From Amoebophrya sp. A120 (lineage: Eukaryota > Protista > Dinoflagellata), in the NCBI GenBank assembly GCA_905178155.1, contig CAJINV010000005.1, positions 1,046,564 to 1,110,563 of the forward strand: a stretch of DNA of 64,000 nt, in the 5' to 3' direction. Position 1 is the first letter of the stretch, and the number at the start of each line of letters is the position of its first letter. The notes below the pieces were generated by a model. That model saw only the letters and a list, made by a program, of their open reading frames with translations, did no database searches and was not told where the DNA came from. Below, one piece after another: positions 6,731 to 49,260 of this stretch. The translations under genes were made by a program, and so were the position numbers.

Positions 6731-9700
6731 ATGGGCTCCGACGAGGAGGAGGACAAGAAAAAGAAGAAGAAGAAGGACAAAAAGGAAAAGTCCAACTCCT
6801 CCAGCGAGGACGCCAACAACAAGAGCAGCACGGACAACGAGGGCGCGGACGACAAGAAGAAGAAAAAAAAGAAGAAGTCCAAGGACAAGTCGGAGGACGC
6901 GGTTGCTATATGCTCGTGGACGATTCCCTTTTCTCATCCTCATTTCAATCGCATGCGCAGCGAACACAAGGAACGCCTTAAGTGTAGTATCCGCATGACA
7001 AATCCGCAGGGGCATGTTCGGGTGTTCCGGGCAGTGCATAGTGCACCCCTCGGACCCCGCACCCCCCCGGGCTTTAGTAGCGCAGTCTGTTAAGCATGAC
7101 AAATCCGCACACAATTTTTTTATTGTTTCTTGGGATTCATTCGAAATTCGTCATGCGCAGAGTGCTTAAACGCAAGACGTGAGTTTGGTACTTCGCATTA
7201 TACAAACAAGTTGGAGCTGCATGCCGGAGTTGTCCACTTGCATACGGCAAAGAGGGCGACCATAAAGCCGACGACGCGGAAGACGGGGCGGCGGCGGACG
7301 ACGCGACACCCGCGGCAGCAGGGGAGGATCAGGCGGGGGCAGCAGGGGAGAAGGAGGCAGCAGCGGATGCGGGAGAAGCGGAGAAGAACGAAGCAGCCGG
7401 GGAACTACAAGAAGGCGCCGCGAAAGAGGACGGTGGACCAGAGGAACCACCCGCTGACGGGGATGCTAAGGCGGAGGGAGCAGAAGATGGTAGTAAAGCA
7501 GGAGCAGATCAGGCTGGGGATGATGCCGCAGTGGCAGGAGCAGATTCCGCAGGGAAGAAAGAGGAAGGAGAAGCTGGGACCGCAGAAGCAAAGCCTGCAG
7601 ATGGTGGGGGAAACGATGCTGAGACCAACGACGACGACAAGCCGTGCGGGGAAAAGCCACCTGGATCGGACGACGAGAAAAAGAATGCAGAATCCAGCTC
7701 AGGAGCCGACGAGATGAAAAAAGACGACACAGAGGGACAAACCAATCCGGGCGACAAGGATGCTGAAGCGGCAAAAATAGAATCAGAAGCGCCGTTGAAC
7801 TCCACGAATGTAGTCGCTGAAGAGACGACGAAATCCGACGACGAGCCGATTCAGCGACGAGACAAATTCGGGAACGTTCTGCCCGACAATGTTAAGGAAG
7901 AAGACCTGGAAGAGAAGCCCTCCTTCAGCCCGCGGTCCCCGAAGCCGGTCGCTGTCGAGCGCGGGTCCCCGCGACCCATGTCACCCGGCCGCTACAGCCG
8001 CGACCCGGAAGCCGGTGGCGTTGGCTACCGGTCGAGGGTTGCCGCGATTACCGGCAAGGACCCGGATCTGGAAGACCCGATTCTCGGCGGGAGCACCACC
8101 CAAGACCCGGAGGTCGCGAAGTTCCTCGAGGGCGTCAGCGCCGAAATCAATTTCACCGACAAGACCGTGAACGTGGAGCCCAGCAGCGCCTTCATGGGCA
8201 GCGGCGGGGGGATAAACAGCAAGTCCAGCGGCGAGCCGCCGATGATGGACTTTTTGCGGAACAGCAACCCAGCACCAGCCGGGGCGCTCGTCCCTGGCTT
8301 TGTTCCAAACTATCTCGCTGCCGCCGGCGCGCAACCCGTGATCACGTCCGCGCGGTCAAACAAGTTCGCAGACGTCGAGGTCGCGATGCCGCACAATCTG
8401 GTTCCCGGACAGCGGTACGACCAGGTCGAGCCCCGGGTGTACGACCACGATTATTCGCCGCAGAAGCACGCTCCGGAGAAGGCGCACTGGTCCCAGCAAT
8501 TCGTGAACAACCTGCGAAAATCCGACGAGGACCTGCTGAAACCTATCGTATTTAAAAATGTCCCCACACCATAGTTGTAATGCAAATCTGCATGCTGAAA
8601 ATGTTTCTCATGCGGAGCCCTATGAGAAGCATTTTCCAGTCGTGTTTTGGAATTTGTCATGCTCCAAGCAGCATGATGTACTAGATCTGTGATGCTGCTG
8701 CGCTAGGTCAAACAGCACTACACTACGAGTCCAAATTTGTCATGCAAAACAGCCAAACCTTGTGGATTTGTCTAGCCGATTCCCCATCTTGACTTTGGGG
8801 TGGGGACGTTTTTACATAGGATAAAACCCCTTCCCACCGGCGTGGCGGGCGCAGCGGCTGCGTCCTCCAGTGCGATGCACCACGCGAAGTCGCCGACACA
8901 ACTTCTGCTCGCCCCGGGGGCCGCGAGCGGCGCCGAAGCCCCGACGAAGTACGTGCTGAACCCGGCGTTTTTGCCGCTGGGCGACATGATCGACAGTGTC
9001 ATCCGGCAGTTCAAAAACTGGCTGCGGTTGAACGACCAAAAGCTCACCCGCGCGGAGGAAAAAGTCGTCGAGTCGATCGTGAAAGGGTTGTCGATGAAGC
9101 TGACCCAGGTGGAGTTTGAACCAATCTCCGACAAGAAGGCCCAACTCAACCACGTGTCGGCGGTCATGGGTACGGTCGGCGGCGTCCCCGCCGGCATGGG
9201 CGTCGGCATCACGGCACCGACGGTCGCGGCGAACGGCAAGAAGTTGCTCCCGCCGCTGGGCACGAACAACGGGGAGATCGAGAAGCGGAAAGAGGAACTG
9301 TCGCAAAAAATCGCGTCCCGCGAAATCATCCAGTGCTTGCGAAAACCCATGAAAAGAATGGAACCGAAGATCTACGAGCGGATCCGAAGGGGGTTAACGG
9401 AAACCTTTTGCTACTTCGCAAGGTCTATCCTGTGCAAAATGAAGGATGTGGCAGTGGTAAGGAGTCGAAATTTGCAGTGCAACGGTCCTACCTGTATGAA
9501 TACTTATTCGGTCCTACCTGCTACAATTTTCAGTTTGGTTCGTCCTGAAATTGAAATTTTTGCTGCAAAAATTCTTACTAGTACGATGCTTTTTCTTCTG
9601 CACTGCATACCGTCAGACGTGAACTACGACCCGTATTCCCCGGCAAAGTGGATTTCCGCCCGGCAGTGGGTGATGTTTGTTCGCTGCTTCGAAGTCTCCG

Positions 9701-12706: not shown

Positions 12707-15330
12707 ATGGCCACAAAGAACGTGCAATTTGAGGTGACGGGGAGCAAGCCTCCCGCCCCGAAGCCGATGAAGAAGCAATTGTGGTCTCTGAATCCGGACC
12801 GCTACGACATCGATACGGTCATCGGGACGGGGTCCTATGGTAAGTGGAAGTTTATGGATCCTGGATGAAGATCGCAAGATAGAATTTCTATGCGAGACAT
12901 TCCTCTGTCGTACTACAGGACCGTGCACCAAGAACAGTGGATGGAAGTAAGCCACAGACCACTGCCAAGAGCATATTTTTTCCCACATCCACAACAGGTC
13001 AAGTGTACGGTGCACAGGACAAGTTTACGGGGAAGAAGGTCGCGATAAAGCGGTCGAAGGACGTGTTTGGTGAACTGACGGACTGCAAGCGAATGCTGAG
13101 GGAAATCGCCATACTGAACCGGATCGAGCACAAAAACGTCGTGCACCTGCACGAGCTGTATCTGCTGCCGAACCCTGCAAATTTCACAGAGATCGCCCTG
13201 GTCTTGGAGCAGTGTCAGTTTGATCTAAAGAAGCTGTACTTATTTTTTTGCTGCTATAATGATAATTCTGTTTCATGTATGCTTTTTTCGGTTCTTTCGC
13301 ATGCTGTGATTGTGCCATGTGCATGTCCACCTTCGGGAGCATCTTTCTTGATTAGAGAAACTGAAGCGTTACGAGCCTGTTTCACCAAAATGCACTGGAT
13401 TTTGAATCAGATTCAAATCGACGGAGCAGCTGAATGAAGCAGAATCAAGGACCTTGTTCTACCGGATTTGCTGCGGCGTCAACTACCTCCACTCACAGGG
13501 CGTCTGGCACCGCGACCTGAAACCAGCAAATGTATCATTGAACGATTTTTGCGTGACATATTCTGATTGCATCACACACTATCATTTTTATTTTCCGCTT
13601 GAAAAGGGTACTGTATCGTGCATAAAGATAAAACGCATGTCGAAAACCTACAGATCCTTCTCAACACGGACTGCACGGTGAAAGTGTGCTATCGCAAGAA
13701 AAAAACTGTCTTAGTCTCAACTTGTAATGCCGCGGACATTCTTTTTTCCTTGAGACCACAGGCTTTTGTCATAACATGCTCGACATGCAAGTGCAACCTA
13801 AGTCATCTTTCATTCGTGTTTTCTCTTGCTTCTGGCGCATCATTTCGTCCTGAGCGAATTTGTATTGCCGATTCTGCAAAGGTTTGAGACTGAGACAGTT
13901 TTTTCCTGGGATATGTGCGACTTCGGGCTGGCCCGCGCGGTTGGTCAGGACAACATGTCCCTGCAGATGCTGGAGCAGGGGGCTCAGGATGCACACGTGA
14001 AGCGCGACCTCACCGCCCACGTGGTCACCCGGTGGTACCGCGCGCCGGAGCTGATTCTGCTGCACGAAAACTACACGGAAGCGATTGACGTGTGGAGTCT
14101 CGGGTGCATCCTGTTCGAGGTGATGCTCATGGAAAAGAGATACTGCGAGAAGGCAGACATTCCGAAGAAGCGCGTGCCCCTGTTCCCGGGGGCCTGCTGC
14201 TACCCACTCAGTCCGCGGAAGGACAAGAACGACAATCCGATCGAGGTATAATGGAGATCAGGAGCGATTTTTGCAGTTGCTGCATTTAAACCGTTGTACA
14301 TTTATTTTTTGTTGTGCATAAAGTTAAAGTAGCATACGGAAAAATTCATCTCAGGTCGACCGCAAGCACGTGGACCAGCTGCGCGTGATTTTTGAGCACA
14401 CTGGGACGCCCAGCAAAGCCGACTACGAGTTTTTGAGCAATCCCGACGCTAAGCACTACTTGAAGAAGCACTTTCCCTCAGAGACGGCGAAGAAGCCGAT
14501 CTGGTTTTACCACCGCTTAAACGGCATTGAACCGAAGCTGCACGATCTGCTGTCCAGGTAGAAAGGATAGTAAGTTGTAATTGACGAATTATAGTTGTTA
14601 TACAAAGTTTGCCTACAGAAGTAGAATGAGGAACGAAACGAAATCTGGTGTAGCTGTTCATGCAGGAGTAGATCAAACACTTCTACTTCCAGAAAAACCC
14701 AATAACTCCGCCAGGTTGCTCGTGTTCAACCCGCAGAAACGCATGTCCCTGATGGATTGCATGCACCACGATTTTCTCGCGAAAACGGTCCGCGAAGAGG
14801 AGGCCCGAGGGAACTTTTTGCCGGGCCGGGGGCCGCACCGGGGGGAGGACGTCGATATGATGGACATGAACGGGAACTGCATCGTGGAAAGCATCAAGTT
14901 GCCGTTTCCGGACCACTATCAAATGCAAAAATGTCTGGGTCTGGAAGAATGAAAGATTTATCATGCTTGTCTGGCATGACTGTTAACTCTGTGATGCTTA
15001 GGCGTAAAAAGATCCTCTTGCGTGTCATGCAAAAATGGAGCCTGTCATGCGGAATACGCAACATACAGGAGCTCAAAAACTTGTCATGCTTGGTCACCTA
15101 TATCAGTGAGCTCATTACTGATACAGTCGCATCACAAGTTTCCAGACCCAGACATATTTGCATTTGATAACCACCTGGAGATGAATGAACCGGAGTTGCG
15201 CCAGTACTACGTGTACGGATTGGAAGTGAGACTAAATTTCGTGGAACGCACAGGAGGCAAGCATCGCAGTAAAGGATCCATATTTGCAGTGTTGGAACGC
15301 GGTGGATTTAACTTGTCATGCGAGCAGTGA
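12707..15330 (+). CDS. Atypical alveolate-type MAP kinase (T-A-H activation motif; Plasmodium MAP-2-like); 3' end uncertain
   Basis: Spliced protein IGTGSYG|[16 protein letters not shown]|[12 protein letters not shown]|[35 protein letters not shown] introns 12840-12997, 13236-13410, 13532-13653, 14246-14354, 14558-14714. TIR elements at 13690 and 14917. Confidence 0.9.
13690..13913. mobile_element. Introner-like TIR element, family C; TSD TGTGC; splits the kinase KVC|DFG
   Basis: Left tatcgcaagaaaaaaactgtcttagtctcaa; right ttgagactgagacagttttttcctgggata. tgtgc at 13685-13689 and 13914-13918. Confidence 0.95.
14917..15169. mobile_element. Introner-like TIR element, family A; TSD ACCAC
   Basis: Left tatcaaatgcaaaaatgtctgggtctggaa; right ttccagacccagacatatttgcatttgata. 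accac at 14912-14916 and 15170-15174. Removing 258 nt gives FPDH|[11 protein letters not shown]. Confidence 0.95.
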
Positions 15331-16492: not shown

Positions 16493-19171
16493 ATGACGTC
16501 CCCCGTGTCGTCCCCTACATCTTCCGGTCAGGGAAATGCCAGTAGCGGTGTGTTGGAAAAGAAAGCGCAAGGAGCTGCCTCGTCTTCCACGGACGTCGCT
16601 GCGGTATACTGTTCTTTAGACTTTTCTCACTTTGCTTGCCACGCTACCTAACATTCTATTCAATTTTCATATTGCATTGTCGATGTCTTGTTCAAGTGAA
16701 GGTGGTCGAATAAATCGTTTTCATCTCAAGTTTGGTCTTTCCATCGACATCGTTCCTTTCCAGGCGCCATCCGCTGCCGCAGCTCCGTCCGGGGGTTCAT
16801 CGAAGTCGGACAGCAAAGACTACTACGGGGCGTATGGTCAGGAGCAGGACTTTTACGACTACAACACGGGCGGAGATCATGATTACAACTACGACTATCA
16901 CGGACAAGCAGGAGCAGGGGCTGCTGGTCCGGCACACGACCAGCAGCACGACGAGGCCTACGACCCCAACTACGACTACAGCCAGGACTACAGCAACAGC
17001 AACGTGGCGTCTTCCACGTCCTACCACGACTACAACAATTACTACCCGCCGACCAGTGCTTCCGGGGAGCACAACTACTACGCGATCCCGATCGCAATGG
17101 AGCCCTACGCGATTTTGGAAGAAGCCTCGCAAAAAATCAGCTACAACACGGACTGGGCTGGGCGGGAAATCCGGAAGCAGATGGCGCAGTGCCGGGTTCG
17201 CCTGCAGGAACACGTGATCCACCGGAGGCGACAGGTGTCCGACGCGGACACGGACAGCGAGGACGATGAAAACGTATCGCAAGAAAAAAGTGTTACAGTT
17301 ACACATTGTGTTGCAGGCCACGCAAGACAGACAAGCTCTGTCATGCCGGATATGCATAGGAGCCTCGTTTCATAGGTGTTTTCCCGTAGGATTTCTGCAT
17401 TGCAAATTTTCTCTCTCATGCAAAGAAATTTGCGTTGCTGAATTCACTACAAATGTGTAACTGTAACACTTTTTTCGTGGGATAAAACGAGGCGTTTTAC
17501 GACTACCGCCAGCATTTGAACCAGCATTTGCAGGAGGCTTGGACGAAAAAGCAGCAGGAACAACTGGAAAAAGATTTGGTTCCCGTGTTTGAGTTCTTGG
17601 ATTCTTTCCACTTAGTGGGGCAGCAACTGGAGTTCATCGCGTCGCAAGTCTCGCAAACCTCCATGGCTCTCGCGGAAAACGTGACCAACTGGTGCGCGGC
17701 GGAGTACGGCTGGACCAAGCACGTGCAGACGTTGAACATGAAAAGCAGCGACTTGCGGCACAAACAGGCCATCGCCCAGGCGAACAACAATCGAGTCAAG
17801 TATAAATGAATGTAGTTTTTGTGCTTCCATGATGGTACACGTTCTTTGGATAAAAATGGCAGAATTTCGAAGTTGTAGAATAAGTTCTTCTCTGTAATTT
17901 TTACGAAGTAAAAATGCGTTGTAGTTCGTGCATGGCACAATAAAGCTGCCTATGAGACCACTTAAAACACCGACCTCCACGGCAATATCAGGCAGCAGAT
18001 GCTCCTTATCGGGGAGGAGCAGAAGCCGTCTTGGTTTTCGCGGAAGGGGAAGTCGCTTGAAAAGCTCGCTGAGGACCAGCATCGACACCAGCAGGCCATC
18101 GCGGATTTTGAGGAGCAGCAGGAGAGTCTGGAAACGGTGAAATCGAAGTTGATTCCGCAGGTCCATGAAGACCTGGAGAAGAAGCGGAAGGAGATTTTGC
18201 AGGCGGTGGACGACCTGTTTCTCAAAGCGAACTTCGTCGTCGGCTACAAGACGGACCCGAAGGAGTTCCGGAAAACCACGCTCGGGGAAGACAAAACCGC
18301 GGCCGGAGGAAGTGCCGGCACAGCAGGTTTTTCGGCGGATGAGTTGGGTCCGCCGCTGTCGTCCAAGCAGTCGCTCAGTGCTAGCGACGAAAAAGGTATG
18401 AACGTGAAGCAGGCGAGTAAAGTGACGCCGGTAGACAACGTGCGCATGGCGGATGAAGTGGCGGTTCCAGCTGAGCACCACGCGGAGAACGAAAATGATG
18501 TGTCTTCAAAGGAGCAAACCAGTAGAAAAGATGTGGATGGAAGTGCCAATAAGGGTGGAAAACCTCCTGGTTCTACCAGTATGTTGAAAGGCTTTGGAAA
18601 AGGAAAACCGGAGGCGCCCCCGAGTAGTTTTCATCCGAGCGCAGGAGCTGCGGATGCGGAAAGTGCGAAGCGCCCGGTGGCGTTTCCGAGCAGGACTGGT
18701 CCCGCTGCTGAGGCAGACAAACCCGCGGCTCCCCCGGTCGCAGCCGCGGCGAATGTGGAAACCCCAAAGCGGCCGGGCGCGCCACCACCGACGACCGAGA
18801 AAGAGATATCGAAAGAAGAAGGTGTAAGCGAAACCACGTCTGTCACACCCAGCGTAGCCGCGACCGTGAGCACCTCAACAGCGGCTACGTCCGCTGTGGT
18901 GTATGAACCCCCGGCACCGCCACCACCAGCACCAGCTGCTGTTGCGCAAGAGACGAAAAGTACTTCCGAAGAGGAGATTGTCGTCGCGGAACCGGAACGA
19001 GGCAGTGCTGCAGGGGGACAAGACCAATTGCCGGGCGCGGTGGTGACTGAAGCAACTACGGGAAAGAAGGCCTCGAAAGGGAAGAAGAAGAAAGGGAAAA
19101 ACGGAGGCTCAGCTGCGTCTTCCTCATCGTCGTCCAGGATTCTGGAGGCGGCAAACAATCCTTTGGCTTAG
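16493..19171 (+). CDS. Hypothetical protein (Tyr/Asp-rich N-terminal part, coiled-coil middle, Ala/Pro/Lys-rich tail); predicted exons 16493-16603, 16764-17274, 17490-17799, 17992-19171
   Basis: GT-AG introns 16604-16763 and 17800-17991, plus the element at 17275, join ORFs 16632, 17516 and 17999 in frame. Confidence 0.7.
17275..17484. mobile_element. Introner-like TIR element, family C-related; TSD AAACG
   Basis: Left tatcgcaagaaaaaagtgttacagttacacatt; right aatgtgtaactgtaacacttttttcgtgggata. aaacg at 17270-17274 and 17485-17489. Removing 215 nt gives DEN|EAFYDY. Confidence 0.93.
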
Positions 19172-21980: not shown

Positions 21981-23843
21981 ATGCAGTTAGGTCTTGGAAA
22001 AACGTCTTCCCGTAGTTCGGCATCTCTGCGATCCGGCCGCCCGGCACTCGCGCGCCACGAGCGGATACGCTTCGCAGCGTGGGTTTATGCCTGTGCTGCA
22101 ACGAGGATCCAGGGCGTTGCAGTCGACCCGAGTCAACACTTGTTGGTAGACCAGCACAACGAGAAGCAGGAGCAGCCTGCCCAGAGCATAATTTCCGACA
22201 CGGGGGAGACCGATGAACTACCAGCGAGCGGCCTTTTGCTCAGAAGCGAGCACGTGGAGAATCGACCGGAACGAGGGCAGCAGGAAAGTGTACTAGAGGT
22301 CGACGTCACGGCAGCTTCACCGTCCAGTGCTGATACGAAAAATGTAGTTTCTGAGAAAAGTAGTAGTGCACGAGGTAAAGAAGACGTGCAAGAAGCATTA
22401 GCACCGACAGACCAGCAACGGGACCGCGGCGAAGAAGTAGCTGTAGATGAAGCGCACCGTCTTGCAGCTCGCGTAGAAGCTCAAACGTTGTTCAGAAACG
22501 AAACTTCAGCGGTGCTGCGTCCACAAACAGAACAGCATACGCAAGGGCGGGAGTTTTTGAATGCTAGTGCCAAGGATCGAGCAGGCATAGGAATCATCCG
22601 AACTACGGGGGGAATCGTGAAGAATAATTACACGACCTCCGGAGTAGAAGATGAAGGAGTGTGGCGCCCAGGAAGTGCAAGTGCGCTGCTTGATGAAGGT
22701 AGTAGTATACAGGGATCTGCGAGTGGTGGTCGTGTAGTAGCAATCCACACAACATCAAGGGAAGATGAACATGAACAAAAAGGTGAGCAGTTTAAATTTG
22801 CGACCCGTGCCGGACAGGGGTTCTGTGACGCTGGATATGATGTCTACGACGCGGTTCCCTCCGGTAAAATATGTGGACGAGCGGACGGTGAAGAGTGCAC
22901 CTGGAGAGTCTGGTGCGGAGACTACACGAGCATTTTGCATTGCAGGGAGTCCGGAGGTTCGTATGTGCACAAACCGGGTATGGTTTTTTTTGCCGTTCGA
23001 CCCGCCGGTCTCGGGCACGTGCAAGCTGATGTGGGGGAAAAAATGCCCATTTGACGTGAACAAAACCAGTCCCACGTTTGACGACGATTTCTGTACCTCG
23101 ACGGACGTCTGCGCCGCGGAGGCCGACCGTGCGCACGCAGCCTTCTTCTCGTGGAAGAAAACTCCAAAGGAAGGAGGCGGTTATGTTTATTGGTGCAGGG
23201 TATTTGACGCTTGCCCCACCGCCAGGTCGGACTCAGCTGGCTTTGTGACCTATTAGCAAATGCAAATATGTCTGGGTCTGGAAACTTGTAATGCTTGCTA
23301 GGGAAGAGTGAATGCCCTGCCACTGTAATGCGCCGCCTTGCATGAGAAAGGTCTGCGCTGCTTAGTGTTGCGTTTTCCGCATGACATTTGCATGACACCA
23401 CAAACACCGTGAGGACGACCACAGGGGGCCCGTCTCAATGATGATGATGATGATGATGACGACAGGCAAGAGGCCCTTTTCCGGCTAGTCATACCAGACA
23501 AGCATGACAAACGCGCATTCTTCCAGACCCAGACATATTTGCATTCCATACCTATCGCTGCAAGACAACGACGACAACCACCACCTCCACGACCACCACT
23601 ACCTCGACGACGACCACGACGACATCCACCACAACCAGCATTTCCGTGAACGAAACTGCCCAAGACAACGCGACCGCCGAAGAGAAGGGCGGAGGCAACG
23701 GTGCGGACGAGAAAGCAGCGGCCGCCGGAACGGGAGGCGGCACCACCAACATTATGCTACTAGGCGGCGGAGCTCTGGCCTTTGGGGGAGGATTGTACTT
23801 CTACCTCGGCCAAGAAGCCGACGGAGGTGCAGGGGCGTTCTGA
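21981..23843 (+). CDS. Putative type I membrane/surface protein with Cys-rich domain and Thr-rich stalk; paralog 2; unresolved frame change near 22900-22990
   Basis: Shares ISDxGET..LLRSEH and CxxxDxCAAxADRxxAxFF..YWCxxxDxCP with paralog 1. After removing element 23254: FVTY|RCKTTTTTTTS...; TM-like IMLLGGGALAFGGGLYFYL. Confidence 0.6.
23254..23550. mobile_element. Introner-like TIR element, family A (opposite orientation to 14917); TSD CCTAT; internal (GAT)n microsatellite
   Basis: Left tagcaaatgcaaatatgtctgggtctggaa; right ttccagacccagacatatttgcattccata. cctat at 23249-23253 and 23551-23555. Removing 302 nt restores frame. Confidence 0.93.
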
Positions 23844-30274: not shown

Positions 30275-33200
30275 ATGGAGTTGAATCTGGTGAAAGCGCA
30301 ACCCTTGCGGTCGGTGTACGTGCGGGCGGATGTGTATGGAAGCGTCAGGTTTGAAATCGACAAAGTTGAAATGATTTGTCATGCATACAATGGATACCAG
30401 TTGGAAGCCCAATTTCCAAGCGGCGCATGACAAATTTTCGGAGCTCTGGAATCCAATTTGTCATGCTGTTTGGGCACAGAAGACTGCTTTTGTCATGCTC
30501 CTCTAGCAGCTCTATCCCAAACCCTAAATAGGCTCACAATCTGCCTCATTTGCCATCCCGGCAAGACAGGCATTCCATGCCTTGCATTTTAGGCATGAGA
30601 AAGCATTTCAACTTTGACGATTTCAATCCTGACAGGTCCATAATGTGAATGCGTTCGAGGCGGTGATCGACCCCAGCATCCGCGAGGTGTACAGCGACAA
30701 CAAGTTTCACACCTCCACAAACGCGAAGATGGTGGAACAATACATTCTGCAGTCGGGGTATCCAAGAAAAAAACGTTGTTAGTGTAAATTTGTGATGCGC
30801 AACATGCAAAGTAATTGCGTCTGTCATGCTTGGCATGCATCGTAGGGTCCATTAAAGGGCGTTTTCACGTACTATCTGCGCATGACAGGTTTTTGCTGTC
30901 ATGCCAGACAAATTTGTAATGCTGTTCCTCCAAAGAAGTTACACCTACAATGTTTTTTTCTTGGATACGGGGGAGCAGAAGGGGTTCCAGACCCGGGACA
31001 AGGAAATCCTGTGGAACATGGAGATCAACACGTTTCAAGTGCGCCACGAGGTGGCCAAGGAGTGGTCCTTTTTCGTCAGCGTCATGGGCCTGTCGCACTC
31101 GCAGAAGGTGGCGGCCGACCACCTGCAGTTGGTCAACAGGTGGAGCGGCCGGAAAATCATAGTGATAATCGCCGACCACGGGTTCCGGGGTCATGGGTAC
31201 AGCAGAGTACCTGTTTTTTCATGCACTTTGACTTTCTCTCGCATAGGGTTAGGGATCCGATTGCATGGATCCGTGACTCCTTTTTCTCCAAATGGCGCGG
31301 TGTCATTTTTCCTGCCTCTTTTAACATTTTCGCTTCGTTTCCTAAAGACAAAAATTCACTTCACCGCAGCGCCCACGAGTTTTTCCAGATAGCGATTGCG
31401 TTGCATACGCAGCTGGGCGCCAACGTGCTGATGTTCGAATCTCCACCGGAATTCGAGCGGAATGTGCGGGACTACGTGGAGATTATGCCCTCCATCATCC
31501 TGAAGATCCTGGATTTCTACCGCATCCACAAATTTGCCGCGTTCGGCCTCGGGTACGGGGGCGCAGTGGCGTTTCGGCTGTACATGCTGGCCCCGGTTCG
31601 GTTTTCCTCCCAGGCACACGTGATGATCAACCCCAGGTTCCTATCTTGAGTAAAAACGTACCCACACCAGAGTCAGGATGGGGATTTTGCAACACAAAAC
31701 TAGGAGTTTTGTGAGTCACGCATGACAAGTTTCAGTCCGTAAGGTAGTGCAAGTTAGCAAGGAAAGCCGCATCACAAATCGACCTGCTGATCCTGTTTAC
31801 AGCATTACAAGTTCCCAAACACGATTGAAAATGCCTGTCATGGGGTTGCGCATCACAAATGTTCCTGTCATGGCAAATCTGCATGACAACTATGGTGTGG
31901 GGACGTTTTTACACAGGATAGTTCCCAGAGGGCGTGGAGCTCCCGGAGCGGTTCGACATCGTGAAAACGATGAAGCGGGTCGGGTTCGAACCCAGCCAGT
32001 TTTGGCTGATCCGGTTGCAGCGGAAACTCGATCAGGACGGGCTACCGATAAAATCCACCAGAATAACGCACGAAAAAAGAAAGATATCGGACAAGGTGAG
32101 AAAGAGCCGTAGTATCTATGGATAAGTAGCTACGGACTAGTCAACATACAGGTGAACGTGGACATCACTATGATTTGCATTAGTTTCCACCATGGCAGCT
32201 CGTTTGTCTTACACTTGCTTTTGATGATCTCTAGTACTGCTTTCAGCAGTGGAAAAATTCGAAGGACCACAAAAACGTCGTCAATTGATTCAAACAACAG
32301 ATTCTCGAAGACAGTTTCCAGAGCCTGCTTCAGCGCGTTATGCAGGAGATCAAGGGGTTGAAGAAGCGCTCCCCCGACGAGGTGAGGACGAAAAATGGAG
32401 CTTTTTTCGACGAGGTAATTTTTTCCCAGGACATCCACTACAAAAACATGCACTGGTTCCGGATGTTCCCCCACGACCCCCAGACGTTGTTGATCCTCTT
32501 TTCCCGAAAAATGACCAAGTGCCTGATCACCTACTTTGTCGCGCAACGGTTTCCCTTCCAGCACGAGGTGATCCCCATGCCGGGGTCGGAGCTCGCGGCG
32601 GTGCAGGACAAGAAGGCACAGGAGGCGGAGGAGGAGGAGGACAGCCCCGGACAAAAGAAGGGAAAGAAGAAGCGCAAAAACGCGAACGCATCCTTGCGAG
32701 AGATGGGGATCGGGGTCGGGGCGGCCGGCACGACCAGTGCGGGGTACTGTCGTGGCTTTTTTTTGGTGCCCTTAATGTCACTGTGAATCAGAATCTGGTG
32801 GATCATGATCTGCATGGCAAGTAGAATTCTTTCTGATGCTCACAATTTCAAACAGCTCACCGTCCGTCTCTTCCCCCGCAATGAGTCTTGTCAAGGGTCA
32901 GGATGGACAAAACATAACCGCCAGCAGCGGTTCGGGTTTTGAAAATAATCTGAAAAAGGAGATAAAAGCTGGTGAGGCCGCAACATCCAATGCCGCGGGG
33001 GACGCACAAGCGGCGGGTGAAAATAGCAAAGCCGCGGAAGGTAGTACCAGTTTAACAGAGGCGCAACAGCCAACCCAGCCAGCAGAGGGAGACCCAGCTG
33101 CATCCGCACCGGCCAAGGAAACCCTGCTCCCGCCCGTGGGGGAGTCACCAAAAGTTAAAGAAGCAACACCCGCGGGGGGCTTGGGTTTGATAGACGAGGG

Positions 33201-35735
33201 CAGTGAGTTGATACCTCTGGAGGGCGGGGGGACGATTTCGTTGGCGGAGTTGCAGAGCCAGCAAGCGGCGGCTGCCGGGGAGGCGGATACGCTGATGTCC
33301 CTGTTTGGCGGGGAGCCAGGATTGTCTCAGCAGTCGGATGACGTTCCGAACAAGCTGCAGGTACTGATTTAGGTTTTTCGTGATCGGTCATAGTACCATT
33401 TCCTCTCCAGTGTGTACATCAACTTGTTGAACAAGAGCGAGTTTCATTTGTTCCAACACGACGTAAGTATATCATTACATCACTTCAGTCCTCCCTTCCC
33501 GCGATCGGAGAAAATTCCCCAGGCCACCAGCGACCCGGTAGTTCCCAATCCCAGCAGCGTCCCGGCAGTTCTCAATCCCAGCAAAGACCGGGCAGTGCAC
33601 AATCACAAAAGGACCGCCCGGGGTCCTCCCAGTCGCAAACCGCGAAGAACACGACGTCGACAATAATGCCCACCGCGGCGGAGGAGGAGCAGTCGAAGAA
33701 GGAGTTTGAAGCAAAGGCCGAGGAGGCGAAGGCCGAATTGCGAAGGCTCGCGGCGGAGGACGCCCGGAAACAGGAGTCCACGGTGAACTTCGGGTTGATC
33801 CGCGAAATGGACGCGATCGTGAACCGGCCCGAGGAACTGGGGTACAACTGCTTTGGCGAACTGGCCAGTCTCGCGAAAATGCGGAAGGCGCAGGTGGGCC
33901 TGCCCGACCCGAACAAGCGGCCGGTGTTGATCGGGAAGGAGATCAACCCGCTGCGCAAGCTCCGGATGGAGGAACGGCAGAACGAGATCATGCGGAAAAT
34001 GGCCGTGGGCGGGCTGGACGCCGAGGCGGAGGAGAAAAAGGAGCGGCAACGCGCGGTGAAGTACTCCGTGGACTTGTCGGCGAAGAACCTGGCGATCTTG
34101 GAACGGGAAAACGTATCAAATGCAAATATGTCTGGGTCTGGAAAGTTGGAACTTGTAATGCTGGCGTTACATTCCTGCGAAATCTGTATTGCGTGACCAA
34201 CAAAAGTGGCAGCCTCTCACGTCATACAAAAACGCAGTCTCTCATGCGGAGTTCGTATGAGAAAGCGTTCTGTACACTTGTCATGCGTTCTAGCATAAAG
34301 GTGTCTTTTCATCATGCACATTTTAGCATCACAAAGTTCCAGACCCAGACATTTTTGCAATCCATAAAACGAAGATCTGTACAACAAGAAGCTGTTGGAG
34401 ATCGCGCAATATCCTGTGCAAAAGTATCGTACTCGTAGTAATTGCATTTATGCATTACAAGTCTTTGTTTCAAGGTAAGTCAGCATTACAAATGCAATTC
34501 TTGTAATGCTGGGCGAGTCTGTAATGCAATTTATACTAGTGCGATGCTTTTGCATTGCATACGCAACAGGAGGAGGCACAGCTGGAAAAGGTCCGGAGAC
34601 ACGACCGCCGCGCGATGGCCAGCTCCTTCACCGCGGGGCCGGGGCGGTCAATCGCGATGTCCTCCACGGTAAAAGGGGCGAGCCGGTTCGGCACGACGAC
34701 CGCCGCGGATCAAGGCAAGAAGATGCAGGCCCTGAAGGACCTGCTCGCGCAGCCCGCCGTGGCGCCGGCCGAGGTGCTCGTCGGCCCGGAGGGCGCGGCG
34801 CCGGCCATCGCGGGGATCATACCGGGGGGAAGGCAGCGGGTGGAGTTGGCGGCCCAGGTGCCGGTCAACGTGGATTCGTTCGAAGACGAGAACGCGCTGG
34901 CGGAGGTGTACCGCAGTCGGTTGGCGGACGCGCAGCGAGCCACGGACAAGGAGGAGACGGACAAGGCAAAAAAGATACGGCACGAGCAACAACACACGAC
35001 AAGGTATCTATTAACGTCAGAATCGCTTTTTTTTTCGTTCTGTCGTGGTCCAGAAGCAGATGTCATGACATGAGAGCGTACGGATCCGAAATAACATATT
35101 TTGAATAAATTTGAATCGCCCGCCGCCACTATGCATCAACAGCAGCAGTCGCTATGTCTACGATCAGAACCTCCTTTGATCCAAATTTCTACGCGCCATT
35201 TGCAAGAGCGGGGCGCGTGTCCGCACATTCTTGTGAGGATTTCTTTTCAAAAAATACGCCCTGGCTCATCTAGTGGACGCAAAAGCGAAACAATTCTGAC
35301 CCTGTACTCAGCGGGTGCTTCTTCGATCCAATTTGTGGAGCACTCGTTCTCTTTGGGGTCAACAGCATACAATACACATTCATCTTTCTGCTTCTGCACT
35401 AAATCACAGCGAAGGCGCTCAATGAGTGCTCATGTTCTGGAATGTAATACCGAAAGACAAAGAAACAACAAAAGAAGTAGGTCGTGCGCAAGATAGAAAT
35501 CCAAATCCCTGAAGATCATGCTACTATACCAAATAACAGGGAAATGCGTCTGGTCGCGCTGATGCAGCAGCGGAAGGAGATGGAGGGGGTGAAGAAACTC
35601 TACGACGAGCAGCAGCGCGCAGTCAAGTACGGCGACCCAGAAACCCGGAAGATGGAGGCGGTGCTGCAAATGTCGCGGGAGGAATTCGAAAACGACCAGG
35701 CAAAGCTGGAAGCGAGCTTGACGCGGCGACGGTAA
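30275..35735 (+). CDS. Multi-exon protein with N-terminal alpha/beta-hydrolase-like domain (GLGYGG elbow), RPGSSQSQ repeats and coiled-coil C-terminus
   Basis: Frame continuous after removing elements 30335, 30759, 31642, 34114, 34410 (each with one TSD) and GT-AG introns 31197-31246, 32096-32300, 32744-32855, 33361-33488, 35004-35539. KFAAFGLGYGGAVAF..HVMINP resembles the hydrolase nucleophile-elbow region. Confidence 0.7.
30335..30642. mobile_element. Introner-like TIR element, family E; TSD ATGTG
   Basis: Left tatggaagcgtcaggtttgaaatcgacaaagttgaaatg; reverse complement of right end tatggacctgtcaggattgaaatcgtcaaagttgaaatg. atgtg at 30330-30334 and 30643-30647. Removal gives RADV|NAFEAV. 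Confidence 0.93.
30759..30967. mobile_element. Introner-like TIR element, family C-related; TSD CGGGG
   Basis: Left tatccaagaaaaaacgttgttagtgtaa; right ttacacctacaatgtttttttcttggata. cgggg at 30754-30758 and 30968-30972. Removal gives ILQSG|EQKGF. Confidence 0.92.
31642..31920. mobile_element. Introner-like TIR element, family B (opposite orientation to 8544 and 48523); TSD GTTCC
   Basis: Left tatcttgagtaaaaacgtacccacaccagagtc; right tatggtgtggggacgtttttacacaggata. gttcc at 31637-31641 and 31921-31925. Removal gives NPRF|PEGVELP. Confidence 0.95.
33531..33636 (+). repeat. Coding tandem repeat (about 27-nt unit) encoding RPGS(S/A)QSQ four times
   Basis: cgacccggtagttcccaatcccagcag / cgtcccggcagttctcaatcccagcaa / agaccgggcagtgcacaatcacaaaag / cgcccggggtcctcccagtcg. 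Confidence 0.8.
34114..34366. mobile_element. Introner-like TIR element, family A; TSD AAACG
   Basis: Left tatcaaatgcaaatatgtctgggtctggaa; right ttccagacccagacatttttgcaatccata. aaacg at 34109-34113 and 34367-34371. Removal gives EREN|EDLYNK. Confidence 0.94.
34410..34561. mobile_element. Introner-like TIR element, family D; TSD CGCAA
   Basis: Left tatcctgtgcaaaagtatcgtactcgtagtaattgcatt; reverse complement of right end tatgcaatgcaaaagcatcgcactagtataaattgcatt. cgcaa at 34405-34409 and 34562-34566. Removal gives LEIAQ|QEEAQ. Confidence 0.9.
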
Positions 35736-37257: not shown

Positions 37258-38107
37258 TTGTGAAAAATGCGAGAGGAAAGAACTGAGTAGAAACTCGAGC
37301 TCGTCGTGGCAATGGAATAGGACTGATGTATGAGAATGAAGTTGTAGTGTGGAATCGAAAGACAGTGACAAGCTTTATCTTCGTTCTCGTGGTCGAATTA
37401 TCCACTCTCATCGTCGTGTTAGTACAGACAAAGAGTGTTCCTGTTCCAGAGCGCAAAAAGCCAGCTATTCGTCATTATTCACACTGTGAATTTACAGAGA
37501 CGCAGAAGTCTTGCAAAATCCCGTACTAGTTCGAGCTCGTAGAAAGCGTCTATTCAGTAACTTTTGCTTCTTTAACTTTAGCTTTTGCTTTGTCGTCGAC
37601 AGGTAGACCGAAGAAATCCGTAGAACTTGAAGGTTAAAAAGATCCGTTTCGTGGCACGGCAAACATAAGAGAAACAGAAGAAAAACCTCTTCACGTGGGT
37701 CGTCGTAATCCTGTTTCTGTTAGTCAACCTGGTCCTGTTTTCTCCTGCTTGCTTATAGAAGTCCATAGATTTTCATTTTTCAAAATTTGAATGTAGTACG
37801 TTTCCACTCTCACGAATAGCTTTGGCCACAACTTTTCGTCGACCTAGCTTTATTACAGGGAGCATTTTAAGGACGAAAGTACGTTAGCCTGCTCGACCAT
37901 TGTCCGTAAAAACGACTAATTGTTTAAGAATGAGAGCAAGTTACTAACGCTCTTCTAGGTCATGCTCGTCTAGCCCAAAGAAAACCAATCCGATTTTTTC
38001 CTTGATTTCCAAAAAAATAATAGCAAGAGGAAGTACGAAAAAGTACTCGCCGAGAGGGAGAGAGAAAAGGAAGTTTCAACGTATTCACAACGCACCAACA
38101 ATCCAAA

Positions 38108-40437: not shown

Positions 40438-41865
40438 GCGGTCGTGGATCGGAACTCCAGGTTTTCAAAAAAATCACTCGATTTTGCCGATGGCAATGGA
40501 AAAATAAATGTGAAGAAGTCACATGAAGAACAACAGCGATTCTAGAACACCGAAAAAAAAACACAACTGAATTAGACTAGCTAAGACAACGTACAACATC
40601 GACGTCGACGACAGGACAAATTCATGCTAGTTCTACGATTTTGACTTCCGAATTTCCACTTTCAAAAACCAACGATGCAAGCTGCAACAGCAACTTGAGC
40701 TTCCTCCTCAAACTAATATAAAACAATAGCACAGAAACAGATGAACAGGGATTTAAGAGAAAAAAATAAGCAACGAAAATGACGCTAATGAATTCCCTAG
40801 TACCAAAAACCTCCTCTCAACGGAAATTTCCTCAAGTAACTATCTTTGACTTTTCGCTGTAACTTTGAGCTACCCATTTAAGATTCCGATGTGCCTGATA
40901 CAAACATCAACTTTACTCAATTGCAAGCATCGTCGTCTTCGCGATTATGAGGCGGGTGTCGCAGGACTGATTTATGTGCAACAGGAAATACGATTACGAA
41001 AATTTTGTCAACACTGATTACACTATTGTACGAACCACCCGTTTACTAACTTCAACTTTAGGTTTACAAGAAACTCAACTTTAACTTCAATTGTAATACT
41101 GATACTTCACTCGTCACACTCCAGCACCGTCCCGGTAGCTGGTTTGAGCTCGATTCAACTGTTTCGGACTACTATTTGCTTAACAGACCGTTTTAGCGAT
41201 TTCAACTCAACAAAAAATTGTTTCGATTCAAAATTAATTTCTTGACGTCCAGTTTGTGCTCGCACAAAGAGGTGATGTCAATTGCACAGAATCAGAGATG
41301 GTTGGTCTTTTTAGAACCAAAATTTTATTCAAGTAAGATTACAGATCGTGTTTCCAAAAACTTTATCTCTAGTTAATGCAACGAAATCTTAATACTTTAG
41401 GAAGCAGAGGGGCTTAATAGATGCTTTCGAACCAAGCTAGACTTGACATTATGGACAGAATCTATGGTTGCGAAAAATCCACTTGTCCTTTTACGCTTCG
41501 GATCTCCCGACGGAGAGCAAAAATTTACCTCATCACATGTTCCAGCGGCGGTGTCGTTTTTCTTTTTGCTCGCTTGGTTTTTTTTGTCTTTTTCAGCAGC
41601 TGCACACTTTTTTTCGTCGAGGTCGGCGGTTCGGAGAGAAGTTGAGGGGGAGCCATCGTCTGAACGGAGTGCAGGTGCAGCACATGAGCGTCGTCCTTGG
41701 TTGCCGATCGCTCGACATTCAGAACTTTATACTACTGCGATCGATTTGATCGCCTTGCTTGTGCTTCTTGTGATCCACTTTTTCCTTTTCCACAAGCACT
41801 AGTTTCGCTTTCTGTTTTCGAAATGTAACATCCTGGTTGATGAAAGATCGTCCTACGCGACTACC

Positions 41866-44800: not shown

Positions 44801-47800
44801 GACGTCGGTAGAGCGAAGGCAGTGCCGTCCGCAAGCAATACGAAGCTTCAAGGCAGGACTACGACTCCTAGCGGGCAAGAGCAAGAACCAGCAGCCGAGC
44901 CACTTGGAAAAAAGGGAAAAGAAGAAGCGCAACCCACCCGGAACAACTCTCCACTTCTTCGGAACATCGACAGTGACCAGGATGATCTGCTCGATTACAA
45001 CGACGAAAGTGACGGTGAAGTCGACTACATTTTTACCGAGGAAGCGGCAGCGCCGGTGCCCTCTGCCTCACCGTTGAGAAACGCCCGCGAGATGGCAGAA
45101 CAGCAGCAGATTGGCGGATTTGCTAGTACGAAGAGTTCGGGTAGTTTTGCTGCAAGTTGTACAACCGCTGGTCGAGGCGGAGCCTCCGTGAACAAAGTCG
45201 CAGCACGCCAGCCGGACGATTCGCCGATATCGATCTTGGAAGATGAACAAGGGGGAGATCAAGATCAGGATCCGTTTGCGGAGGAGAAAACCTCCGCTGT
45301 TCTCATGGCGGATATTGCGTCGTCCTTCAACGAGCTGAAGGAACATTTGTCGAAAAGTTCTGTTTCATCTTCTTCAAAACAGTCACAAGAACGGTCGAAG
45401 TCGAAGGAAAGCGTCACGTACTCGCAGAATGATTTTCACGCACCCGAGTCTAGCGTGGGCAATGCGTCGGTGGTGCGGGACAGTGAAGAACCACCGCAGG
45501 AGCCTCCTGAGTCTTCCGACACCGACTCAGATGCGGATGTGATTTCGAGACAGAGAGGAATGAAGAAATCCGGCTCACGACTCGAAATGAGTCCGCCACC
45601 TTTCCCGTTCGCGCATGACGAGCCGTTTGAAGTAGGGGGCGAGAAAATAAAGCCAGTGAGCTTGCTCCCTGGCAACACAAGCACTTTTCCCGCTACTTTC
45701 ACATCGCACACAGCATCCAGTGGCTCGATTCATCCCGCTGGTACGATACCTGCAACCGGAACGAACACGGTAGAGACAACAGCCAACCGCTACAAGCAGG
45801 CGGACACGCCGCTTTTCGGCCGGAGCGTGCAGGAGCCAGACTCTGTCGAATTGAACAGTGTCGACTCTGATTCAGACGGGGAGGACGTCGAGCAGGAGCT
45901 TTTGCGAGCAGGAGAAGATGATGGTCGTGAAAACAGTGAAGATGAAGATGTAAAAGTACACGCAGATGAGCCGGACCCAGTTTTGTACTCGGAGGCGACG
46001 CTGATTGCGGGTCTAGAAGAAGAGTTGAAATCCGAAACCAGCATCACGGACCAGAAACACCACCAAAACGCGAATTTTCCCAGCACAAATTTACTTCACC
46101 GTGGGGCTTTCACCACCGGTGGGAGTACGAGCAGCAGTAGTGGTAGTAGTACAACTGCTGCTGCTGCTGTTGCTGGTGCTACCACCTCTTCCCAAACGCA
46201 GACCGCGCGGTCAGCCGCCGCGAAAGCGAGACCGCGACGACCCGCAAGTGCGGCGAGGAGAAACAGTACGCCGCGAGCGACAGGAAGTAGTGGCGCAACC
46301 AGGGACCACCGCCGACGATCAGGAAGACCGAATGCGAGTCCGACTGCAGGAGGAGCTGCTGCGCGTGGTACAACTAGGACAGGTGCAGGGACGAGCTCTG
46401 CTTCCAGTACAGTAGCGAGCAGTGGTACAAGTACTGCGACGACATCAAGGAACCACCCTGGTCGCAGTAGGGCCGCGCGGCCCGTCAGCTCGCGCGGGAC
46501 TAGATCTTCGACAGGAGAACAAGGAGGTTCGTCCTCCTCCACAGGAAAAGCCGGGACTCCGCGCGGGGCGTCCGGTGCTTCGAGCGCGAAGTTGAAGTTT
46601 CACTCGGACCAGCGAGTGGAACAACGGAAGGAATACAACACGGAAGCTGATGCGAAACGCGCGCAGCAAACGCCACGGGAGCAGGCCGGGCAGTGGGCCG
46701 CGCCGAAGGACGGGCCGACGGTGCACTGTGGGGGTTTGGGTCCGTGGGAGAACGGGCTCCGGAGCAGCAGCTCGCCGGTGCCAGCAGCGAAAGCGAAAGT
46801 TGAGGAGCCGAAGACCGAGGATGTAGCTGTTGATGGAAATGACGTTGATAATGGTATCGCGAAGAAGACCGCGAGTAAGGAACCTGCGGATCATGCACCA
46901 CAAGCAGGTGAAAGCGTAAAACCTCCTTTAACCCTGCCGCTCCCGAAAGAAGACAAGGGTCCCCCCAGTGGCCACGTTTTCGTGATGGACGATTCTCCTC
47001 CAGTTTACAGCGAAACTGCAAGCTACAAGACCGTAAAATCCGCAACCACAACAGCACCCCCAGCCCCTCCGCCGCGACCGACTTCCGCGATGAGCGGCAG
47101 CATGACGGCGAGACAGATAAATCCGCCAAGAGCCAAACCCTTTTACCACCTTTTCGGTGTTGGGAGCAACACCGCGCGACCGCAATCCGCGAGGCCTGGC
47201 GGATCTTCCACCAACGACGACGATGACGGCGACTTTATCACCGTGCCTTGGTGGCAACGGATGCACGGTAAGCAGACGCAGCAGCGCGCCGCGGCGCAGG
47301 CGGCGAATGCGGAAAAGATCAAGATCATGAAGGCATGGCAGAAGGAGAAGAAGCAGTTACTCGCGGAGACGGAAACGGCGTTGGTTTTTACCGATCCGTT
47401 CGCGCAGACGGTGTTCCGGGTGCGGAACAGTTTCAATCAGCAGGAAGCAGGCGTGATTGATGAAAGCTCGGAACCGGCGTCGTCGCCCGGGAAGCAGATG
47501 CCTGTGGTAGCAGATTCTGAGCGGAAGGAGGGCATGGAAAAGCAAAACACGCAAAGGATTCCACTTCAACAGCACCAAAGCCAACCAGGTGCACCGCGAC
47601 CGGGATCTGCGGCGGGATTTCACAGTTACAGCAGCAATTGGAACACAACCGCGACCTCTACCTCGCGTCCGAGTTCCGCGGCGGGCGTCCGAAGAGAGGC
47701 ACGTCCGTTTAACGAGGAGCTCAGTACCTCTCCCTCTGCGAAGCAGTGCAAGTTTGTGCCGCAGTCTGCGGCGAGACGCTTTGACGCCCCTCCATTTGGG

Positions 47801-49260
47801 CAGGAAACCAGGCCGCGCGAGCGACCAGGGTCCGCCGGAAGCAATATGCGAGCGAAATTGCGATACACCCACCGGCAAATCCGGGATGAGCTGATGCAGC
47901 AGTACGAAAAGGAGAAGGAGGAGAAGGAAAGACAGAACCATGCGAAAGCCGCTGCGGGCAGCAATGTAGTAGAACAGGCACATCAAACGCCCGGAAATCC
48001 GTACGCGCCGATTTCCGGGGCGAGGGCGAATGCGAACCTGAATCCGAACCCCTCTACAACCGGTAGCAGTACCCCACACGCGACTCGACCACGGCCGCAG
48101 TCCGCCTTCGGAAACCGAAACTTCATCCGGGAGAACCGGGAGATCGGGACAATTTTGAAGAACGCGAGACGGCGAATTCAGGGGGAAATGGAAGACGAAG
48201 AAAACGTCGAGTCGCACTTTTTCGTCAACGATGAGCTGCAGAGACGCTGGTTTGGAACTGGATCCGGTGGAGCGGGAGGAGTAGATCAAGACTACGATCA
48301 TGTCGTTGGAGCTGCTGCTGCTGCAGCAGGACCTTCTGCCGCAACCGTGAAAGCACAGCACGTGGCTTCAAAGCCGAGCTTCGTAGCACCACCGGCGACC
48401 ACATCCCGGCCGCAGGGGAACAAGAATGTGAAAGTTCAGTTAACAACAGAGCAGATCCACGCCGATTTTGAGGCGCAGTTTGCGAAGTCCACGTTTGTCG
48501 AGGGAGAACACTCGCTATCGCCTATCCTGAGTAAAAACGTACCCGCACCAGAGTTGTAATGTAGATTTGCAAAGACAGGAAGACTTGTAATGCGCATCAC
48601 CATGAGAGCCATTTTCAATCGTGTTTTGGAATTTGTGATGCTGTGAACAGGATGAGCCGATGAATCTGTGATGCGGCTGCACTTGCTAACCTGCACTACA
48701 CTGCAGAGTGCAACTTGTCATGCGTGACTCACAAAACTCCTAGGTTTGTGCTGCAAAATCCCCATCCTGACTCTGGTGTGGGTACGTTTTTACTCAGGAT
48801 ATCGCCGGAAAAGGAAAGCCGAGCTGTACGCAATCATGGAGCGGATTTTGGAAGGGAGCTGATCGAGATGACTTCGGTCGACGACAAGGAGGAATTTTCA
48901 CCTCAGGACAAATCGGTTGTGGAACAGGAAGATAGGGCTTGGGCGGCTATCAAATGTAAAAACGTCTGGGTCTGGAAGAATGCAACTTGTGATGCTGCAT
49001 TTGGATTCCAAAAAAATCTGTATTACATGAGTACCAAAGGGAATGCAATTTTTGCTACGCTGAGAAGGCATCTGTCATGCGGAATAGGCATCCAGAAGCG
49101 TTCAAAAAATCTGTATTACTAGGGTATGCATCGCAGAGACAGACATCATGGCTCATGCAAAACGTGCATGACAAACCTCGCATTCATCCAGACCCAGACA
49201 TTTTTACATTTGATAGCGGCCGGACTGCTGCAAAAGTTTTATCGGGAACAGCACCAGTAA
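41866..49260 (+). CDS. J-domain (DnaJ) protein with Cys/His cluster (FAM221-like) and a very long low-complexity RPxSA-rich tail
   Basis: J-domain ILGF..VQKAFKRLALVFHPDK..FQQIVAARDLL. Cys/His cluster WECSAC..HICACGY..SH..CADSGCENFEY..CPTCGHAQACH. GT-AG introns 42744-42873 and 43537-43674. Elements 48523 and 48948. Stop TAA 49258-49260. Confidence 0.8.
48523..48801. mobile_element. Introner-like TIR element, family B; TSD TCGCC
   Basis: Left tatcctgagtaaaaacgtacccgcaccagagt; right actctggtgtgggtacgtttttactcaggata. tcgcc at 48518-48522 and 48802-48806. Removal gives HSLSP|EKESR. Confidence 0.95.
48948..49215. mobile_element. Introner-like TIR element, family A; TSD GCGGC
   Basis: Left tatcaaatgtaaaaacgtctgggtctgga; right tccagacccagacatttttacatttgata. 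gcggc at 48943-48947 and 49216-49220. Removal gives RAWAA|GLLQKFYREQHQ*. Confidence 0.94.

Follow-up and report, generated by a model that had tools for sequence, protein, structure and literature searches.

The stretch examined here, called the window below, comprises 64,000 nucleotides (nt) of contig CAJINV010000005.1 (assembly GCA_905178155.1, positions 1,046,564 to 1,110,563, forward strand) of the dinoflagellate Amoebophrya sp. A120. Interspersed in its genes are 13 short elements bounded by terminal inverted repeats (TIRs) with TAT...ATA ends, each lying inside an exact 5-bp target duplication. Our reading, which we consider probable, is that such elements, inserted in either orientation, are lost from spliced transcript contigs along with precisely one duplication copy, likely by way of an RNA-processing machine that reads their mirror-symmetric ends.

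Scans of the window returned 14 candidates, 13 of which have the 5-bp duplication directly outside their ends; the remaining one, at 38654-38825, has no duplication and was dropped. The left end is TAT in all copies except that at 23254 (TAG), and the right end is ATA in all except that ending at 3955 (ATG). The elements are 152-308 nt long and fall into five TIR families, A (n = 5), B (n = 3), C (n = 3), D (n = 1) and E (n = 1). Family B consists of two copies in the majority orientation of the window, at 8544..8823 (+, duplication AAACC) and 48523..48801 (+, duplication TCGCC, fold z -7.4), whose precise removal would take out 285 and 284 nt respectively, and of an inverted copy at 31642..31920 (-, duplication GTTCC, fold z -5.2). 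Family A is represented at 14917..15169 (+, ACCAC), 34114..34366 (+, AAACG) and 48948..49215 (+, GCGGC), by a shortened copy at 3755..3955 (+, CTGAC) and by an inverted one at 23254..23550 (-, CCTAT, fold z -3.2). The other copies, entered without a strand, are the family C elements at 17275..17484 (AAACG) and 30759..30967 (CGGGG), a C-type element at 13690..13913 (TGTGC), the family D element at 30335..30642 (ATGTG) and the family E element at 34410..34561 (CGCAA). All are likely to be short non-autonomous DNA transposons; Pfam gave no transposase match among 19 open reading frame (ORF) pieces of the window or 102 flank pieces of a second public assembly (contigs JACKZZ01), and Rfam gave 0 matches. 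The motif YTGT(A/C/G)ATG, present in all five families, marks their orientation (it stands at positions 32, 63, 111, 144 and 193 of the copy at 48523) and is possibly a subterminal repeat bound by the transposase. Outside the elements it occurs four more times on the + strand and three times on the - strand (e.g. at 15313, 7001 and 7102), perhaps in decayed elements.

That the same element lies both ways round is seen most directly in family B, where 31642-31921 and 48522-48801 form an ungapped inverted pair of 280 nt with 86% complementarity, and where 8544, the reverse complement of 31642 and 48523 are collinear end to end over the 291 columns of a three-way alignment. With 35 nt trimmed off each element end (maxima from shuffled sequences 26-30), the interior local score of 31642 against 48523 is 288 in opposite and 26 in the same orientation (shuffle maximum 26), that of 31642 against 8544 is 139 opposite and 32 same, and that of 8544 against 48523 is 150 same and 36 opposite. 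In family A, the interior of 23254 scores 66 against 14917 in opposite orientation and 24 in the same one (shuffle maximum 26), and a clustering of 148 family A copies (inconsistent edges 0/3,824) places 23254 opposite to 3755, 34114 and 48948 as well. A preliminary description of this DNA had named both cases, the family B copy at 31642 as the reverse complement of 48523, which runs like 8544, and 23254 as inverted with respect to 14917, and both are borne out, down to the two end strings that it quoted for family A, which are present in the alignment.

The hosts of all 13 elements lie on the + strand, as judged from neighbouring long frames and a codon model; coding scores of the neighbourhood favour + in 13 of 13 cases, and four + GT..AG introns accompany the inverted copy at 31642, so that the host strand given in the preliminary description holds. 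Its further statement that removal restores the reading frame also holds, since taking out an element with one 5-bp duplication joins open frames: 1,629 and 60 open codons are joined at 48523, and 453 and 391 open codons flank the copy at 8544. The gene that houses the inverted family B copy (30275..35735, +) reads through 1,026 codons once five elements and five GT..AG introns are taken out; its spliced product of 1,026 amino acids would stop at 224 amino acids if this copy were retained, and four exon pieces of it tested against Pfam found no match. The frame that houses the inverted family A copy (22741..23843, +) has 266 open codons after removal, and reading of the sequence suggests a product with a cysteine-rich part, a Thr-rich stalk and a hydrophobic tail.

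Evidence at the level of transcripts comes from contigs of four sequencing runs (X3-X6; two samples of one study, out of 11 runs listed) covering 22700-34750, which we take to be RNA by inference, no run being recorded as such; the contigs are unstranded and were obtained via reverse transcription. Each of the six elements in this stretch, two of them inverted, is skipped precisely in all four runs, with skips of 302 nt (23254, joint 23247>23550), 313 nt (30335), 214 nt (30759), 284 nt (31642, joint 31636>31921), 258 nt (34114) and 157 nt (34410), in each case the element plus 5. Removal is thus not confined to one orientation, the inverted copies at 23254 and 31642 being skipped like the + copies. 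Five of the six share one contig with four GT..AG introns of + polarity, and because of these introns the contig must be spliced RNA of the + strand; the contig across 23254 has no GT..AG joint of its own, and its strand rests on the neighbourhood. Several joints are flagged as not known with respect to the letters between the joined exons, and exon lengths sum exactly to contig coordinates (2,349 = 2,349), leaving no room for letters in between. The copy at 23254, with its TAG end, is still precisely removed, and the third base of the element end is not essential. At 48523, a piece of an X6 contig breaks off at 48515, where the leftmost precise cut would fall, while 605 nt of the contig are still to come, which suggests the same joint there. 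By contrast with these skips, contigs of X1, a likely DNA run, at 30943-31671, 31896-34139 and 34533-48551 continue past the junctions and into the elements without showing any difference, their depth of 43-45 corresponding to the single-copy level. The raw runs X9 and X10 contribute 17 and 35 reads respectively on 30000-49600. Almost the sole X10 cover lies at 36091-36146, where an adaptor-like loose end precedes 36091 in 25 reads and a poly(A) loose end follows 36146 in 19.

Logos of the element ends from 157 copies show TAT in 97-100% and A in 87-95% at positions 11-13 (partly selected for), the run of A near positions 11-15 being missing in family D and two small families, and on the host strand the 5' and 3' logos are mirror images of each other. 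Since both ends read alike either way, orientation by itself excludes only signals in the interior, and not a spliceosome. Between two identical duplications the precise cut can slide over at least six registers, and in none of them does any of the 13 window copies have GT-AG or GC-AG; among all copies 12 of 157 do. Whichever way the element lies, its transcribed strand is predicted to form a long terminal stem, and in 70 sampled copies the predicted pairing probability averages 0.70-0.84 for the terminal pairs and 0.9-0.95 for pairs 9-20 in both orientation classes; the difference in folding energy between sense and antisense tracks the orientation of the element and not the host strand.

A TIR-pattern search of JACKZZ01, whose blastn matches to the window fall at element positions only (up to 95% identity), yielded at least 170 loci (423 kb including overlaps), a sample biased to family A. 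Of 268 listed matches, 17 had unsuitable ends or lengths and were left out; two window copies that the scan had missed were entered by hand, for a total of 253, of which 240 are non-redundant; the host strand, predicted with a codon model trained on window ORFs, was called for 144 of the 240 and agrees with a call from the flanks only in 97 of 98. Relative to the host strand, the two orientations number 49:35 among the listed copies of family A (p 0.16), 3:3 in B, 10:6 in C and 6:5 in E, and the flank-only call gives 41:31 and 20:20. A strong orientation bias, part of what the preliminary description named as refuting the idea, is excluded for family A; a mild one may exist, and no bias reaches significance. 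Precise removal accords with the reading phases, taken separately to the left and right of the junction, in 27 of 28 family A copies of one orientation class, in 21 of 24 of the other and in 80 of 85 scorable copies over all families, where chance would give one third. Among 81 family A copies defined by their TIR cores alone, 67 have a 5-bp duplication, eight a 2-bp match (near chance) and none one of 3, 4 or 6-9 bp, and TAT...ATA stands at both ends in 74. In the empty sites no base is preferred, either within the duplication or beside it, and removal lengths spread over the three frames as 54/45/58. One family A copy of the minority orientation splits an ABC nucleotide-binding domain in frame (L167), and one of the majority orientation lies within a DNA ligase (L013); these are the two of 51 flank pairs with Pfam matches on both sides, most having no match. 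Longer family A copies with intact 5-bp duplications occur at L070:571 (481 nt) and L034:632 (834 nt, the longest family A copy with a duplication), possibly as nested insertions.

Because both orientations are removed, without strong bias and with the inverted family B copy in a long transcribed ORF, and because the ends are mirror images, the signal for removal most likely lies in the TIRs, within the terminal ~30 nt. To this extent the proposal of the preliminary description that symmetric TIRs carry the signal stands; two of its particulars are not supported. One was that a TIR might read as an ordinary donor one way and as an acceptor the other way. The family B TIRs do hold GT(AAAA) and (TTTTTAC)TCAG, but the observed joints lie elsewhere, and a cut at these sites is in the wrong frame and truncates the product at 224 amino acids, so that they were rejected as splice sites. 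The other was compensatory change between the two TIRs of a copy, of which we see none: the within-copy TIR match in family A is 0.877 against 0.869 in shuffled pairs (p 0.02, carried by positions 10 and 14), in family B 0.853 against 0.836 (p 0.13, n 12), and in family C 0.851 against 0.703, a difference that mixing of subfamilies would also yield. A resemblance of N-TATC to the U12 donor consensus was rejected too: C stands at position 4 in no more than 60-69%, A predominates at position 5, and U11/U12 were not found by Farhat et al. according to the accessible part of their paper (PMC7789003).

Several observations weigh against our reading. Its RNA support consists of assembled contigs only, unstranded and reverse-transcribed, from two samples of one study, whose status as RNA is guessed; of the three family B copies a direct joint is available for 31642 only, the evidence at 48523 being indirect, and 8544, like the family A copy at 14917, lies outside the transcript stretch. 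In the second assembly the host strand depends on a codon model trained on the window and is not called for 96 of 240 copies. If pairing of the two arms in RNA were under selection one might look for it in the sequences, but on the host strand of 149 copies G-U mismatches (108) are no commoner than A-C ones (117; p 0.59), pairing at TIR positions 4, 5 and 7 of family A (51, 53 and 33% of 140 copies) does not exceed the shuffled level, and TIR symmetry is needed for transposition in any case. Finally, GT-AG registers are found in 11 of 157 copies where 3.2% are expected (p 0.018, uncorrected, one of six tests), a weak hint of help from the spliceosome; GC-AG has 1 of 157 against 2.8% expected, and GA-AG 9 of 157.

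This hint bears on a rival that we regard as a serious, if doubtful, possibility, namely that a relaxed U2/U5/U6 spliceosome keeps its polar chemistry and finds all its signals inside the symmetric TIR, for example as an N|UAU(C/G) donor with a free first base or as a U-tract...UAN| acceptor whose last base is free, with the other cut set by the stem. Such a route is proposed by Farhat et al. (2021), who in the accessible text (PMC7789003) report nearly all spliceosomal proteins and U2/U4/U6, with U1 small nuclear RNA undetected; GT..AG introns are spliced out of the same contigs, the A run near positions 11-15 of most families would form a U tract at the RNA 3' end, duplications of the form xxAGG (8/157) accompany the slight GT-AG excess, and tunicate spliceosomes, as far as the source consulted in part goes, handle non-GT/AG introns. 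It is opposed by the random dinucleotide that must stand at one intron end at least, by the absence of a clear preference for G at the first and last duplication base (43 and 56 of 157; AGG reaches up to 7 at other offsets), by family D, which has no A run at 11-15 and of which the copy at 30335 is nevertheless removed, and by the preference of published spliceosomal two-way introners for one orientation in the excerpts available, no significant bias being seen here. Normal GT..AG splicing of the kind known from Polarella and Aureococcus, with sites that lie within the TIRs or are borrowed from the duplication, could be called upon formally by 134 of 157 copies, which have some in-frame GT..AG pair in the duplication or within 25 nt of the ends; all six observed joints are precise and offer no GT-AG or GC-AG register, which contradicts it for these six copies and makes it very improbable overall.

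The remaining explanations place the event outside splicing altogether. Reverse transcriptase might switch template between the 5-nt repeats at the foot of the hairpin, the elements staying in the mRNA of dead genes or of genes whose ribosomes hop between matched repeats. Such an artefact is blind to orientation, takes out the element with one repeat and could affect all RNA data here, which are reverse-transcribed; in yeast, ~30% of IGS1 R cDNAs showed a spurious intron of 117 nt that came from a repeat-flanked hairpin. We nevertheless hold it to be improbable: the joined form is the main contig path for all six elements, and the X6 depth over the bin of 31642 is 17.3 where exons alone predict 17.0 (X3-X5 lie higher, at 41-176 where 30-33 is expected, a surplus not separable from other copies). 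The copies are 57-86% alike and hence old, but their host frames have remained open over hundreds of codons to either side, and there are 13 elements in 64 kb, five of them in one gene. Excision from DNA before expression, as of the internal eliminated sequences of ciliates, is likewise orientation-blind by nature, and TIR ends with TA...TA and precise removal fit it; contigs drop rare variants, so rare empty sites could go unseen. Against it stand the X1 contigs that cross the junctions into the elements at single-copy depth, and we know of no separate somatic nucleus in these organisms; we consider it quite improbable.

If the elements are removed from RNA with their symmetric ends as the signal, as we think, the course of events might be as follows. 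The element inserts without sequence preference at a 5-bp staggered cut, in either orientation, as anatomy and counts show. In the transcript its TIR arms would pair into a stem of ~25-35 bp, predicted by folding and equal for both orientations, that brings the two duplications together. Cleavage of the RNA would follow, at a set distance from the terminal UAU/AUA and with offsets that total 5 nt, before the exons are joined; the product is seen, and six registers are compatible with the mRNA. Every register puts at least one cut in random target sequence, so that position and not a dinucleotide must define the cut. That these three steps occur in vivo as an RNA event we regard as highly probable. 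The catalyst could be a structure-reading cut-and-ligate route that makes no lariat, as suspected for the nonconventional introns of euglenids; we favour it over a relaxed spliceosome, giving it close to an even chance. More specifically and more tentatively, it may amount to a second, non-spliceosomal nuclear mRNA splicing system, in which a two-fold symmetric endonuclease-ligase acts on the UAU/AUA-capped stem, cuts with a stagger identical to the 5-nt duplication made by the transposase, and seals the exons. Were this so, any TIR element of such a class would make a perfect intron wherever it lands and whichever way round, and an alveolate would possess a convergent counterpart of euglenid nonconventional splicing.

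The work on introners reportedly done by Huff in 2016 is known to us through a preprint by Roy et al. and a review. Splice sites of the type concerned are no feature of the present elements, GT-AG, GC-AG and GA-AG registers in 11, 1 and 9 of 157 copies being near chance and 0 of 6 observed joints having one. According to that preprint (10.1101/2020.10.14.339549) and review (PMC10228655), as far as their accessible parts go, two-way TIR introners occur in Polarella glacialis (classes 1-3, 6-8 and 10) and in Aureococcus, and one published introner pipeline allows for copies in opposite orientation in the portion available. This leaves unsupported the premise of the preliminary description that, spliceosomal introns being polar, removal both ways is in itself a surprise. 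With the introners of Polarella and Aureococcus the present elements share their nature as non-autonomous TIR elements, their target duplications and their service as introns in either orientation. Those introners, so described, carry GT/GC/GA and AG or co-opt them from constrained duplications and are orientation-biased, whereas here the targets are unconstrained, most copies have no such sites and there is no significant bias.

Closest by described anatomy are the introner elements that Farhat et al. described in Amoebophrya A120 itself, given in the accessible text of PMC7789003 as inverted repeats starting with TAT, followed by seven variable bases and then As, with direct repeats 3-5 nt long (Fig. 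S19 has 5 bp), a mean length of ~240 nt and co-oriented genes; a hairpin is proposed there to join the exons, repeat length and splice position being treated as variable. Shared with our elements are RNA-supported non-GT-AG introns (6/6; contigs only), TAT with variable bases and an A run, the border repeat, the division into families and the predicted hairpin; different are the duplication of strictly 5 bp, the removal of exactly the element with one duplication and the nearly equal use of both orientations. The elements and the hairpin idea are thus already published, as are two-way introners elsewhere. In PMC7789003, in the part accessible, 'orientation' concerns genes, and no orientation analysis of the elements was found there; a word search for orientation in PMC7789003 with its supplement, PMC12130899, PMC11282704, PMC9860276, PMC11453091, PMC12787238 and PMC13326754, as far as these texts were available, and the open literature on introners, Amoebophrya splicing and euglenid introns, subscription papers being outside its scope, gave none for A120-type introners. 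What appears to be new, as far as open literature shows, is removal that works both ways, is unbiased and places one cut or more in random sequence.

The closest working analogue is found in the nonconventional introns of euglenids and diplonemids, which according to the sections consulted of PMC6221363 and PMC11282704 have no GT-AG, ends joined by a stem, duplication-like repeats and a likely origin from transposable elements of the miniature inverted-repeat kind, and are reported to leave as full-length circles. The terminal stem and the lack of GT-AG are common to both; euglenid introns retain a weak Y|R consensus at their junctions, with CAG/CTG pairing at +4-6/-8-6, in contrast to the TAT...ATA without junction consensus found here, and the paper text searched, itself partial, makes no mention of their orientation. 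With IS3EU/GingerRoot transposons (PMC10045372, in the part accessible) the elements share TA..TA termini, and integrase-type DDE chemistry would give short fixed duplications; those duplications are usually 6 bp, as against 5 bp here, with 0 of 81 core-defined family A copies at 6 bp.

How tens of thousands of Amoebophrya non-GT-AG introns are removed is posed as an open question in the accessible text of PMC7789003. Since the element plus 5 nt is always lost, whatever the interior, the direction or the target sequence, at least one cut must be placed by distance from a symmetric end, and it is this constraint on mechanism, and not a new system, that is gained unless a non-spliceosomal route is demonstrated. 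Pairs inverted by nature, among them the family B copies at 31642 and 48523, are ready substrates for mapping the ends of the excised introns, and for annotation the rule is to take out TAT...ATA with one 5-bp duplication on either strand.

Some further observations concern the neighbourhood. In the host of the inverted family A copy there is an unexplained frame change upstream of the element, where the host frame (from 22741) shares sequence with a 377-codon + frame that lies at 21921-23054 in another phase, the two being weakly coding in appearance; a run of eight Ts lies near 22983-22990, within the overlap. Because contigs of four runs match 22700-23247 without gaps, the two-phase overlap at 21921-23256 is not an assembly slip; it is a frameshifted gene, two overlapping genes or a case of recoding. 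The 3' end of this host gene recurs 1.9 kb downstream as part of a 62-nt direct repeat (23792-23853 and 25700-25761, 84%), and over 22700-25882 single contigs of 4-11 kb span several co-oriented genes with their spacers, where read-through and merged neighbours look alike. A homologue search with 2-1927 returned solely the window's own protein. By Pfam, this same interval encodes a ubiquitin-conjugating enzyme, 57824-61567 a protein with Vps54_N and a weak Syndetin_C match, and 62343-63311 nucleoporin FG repeats.

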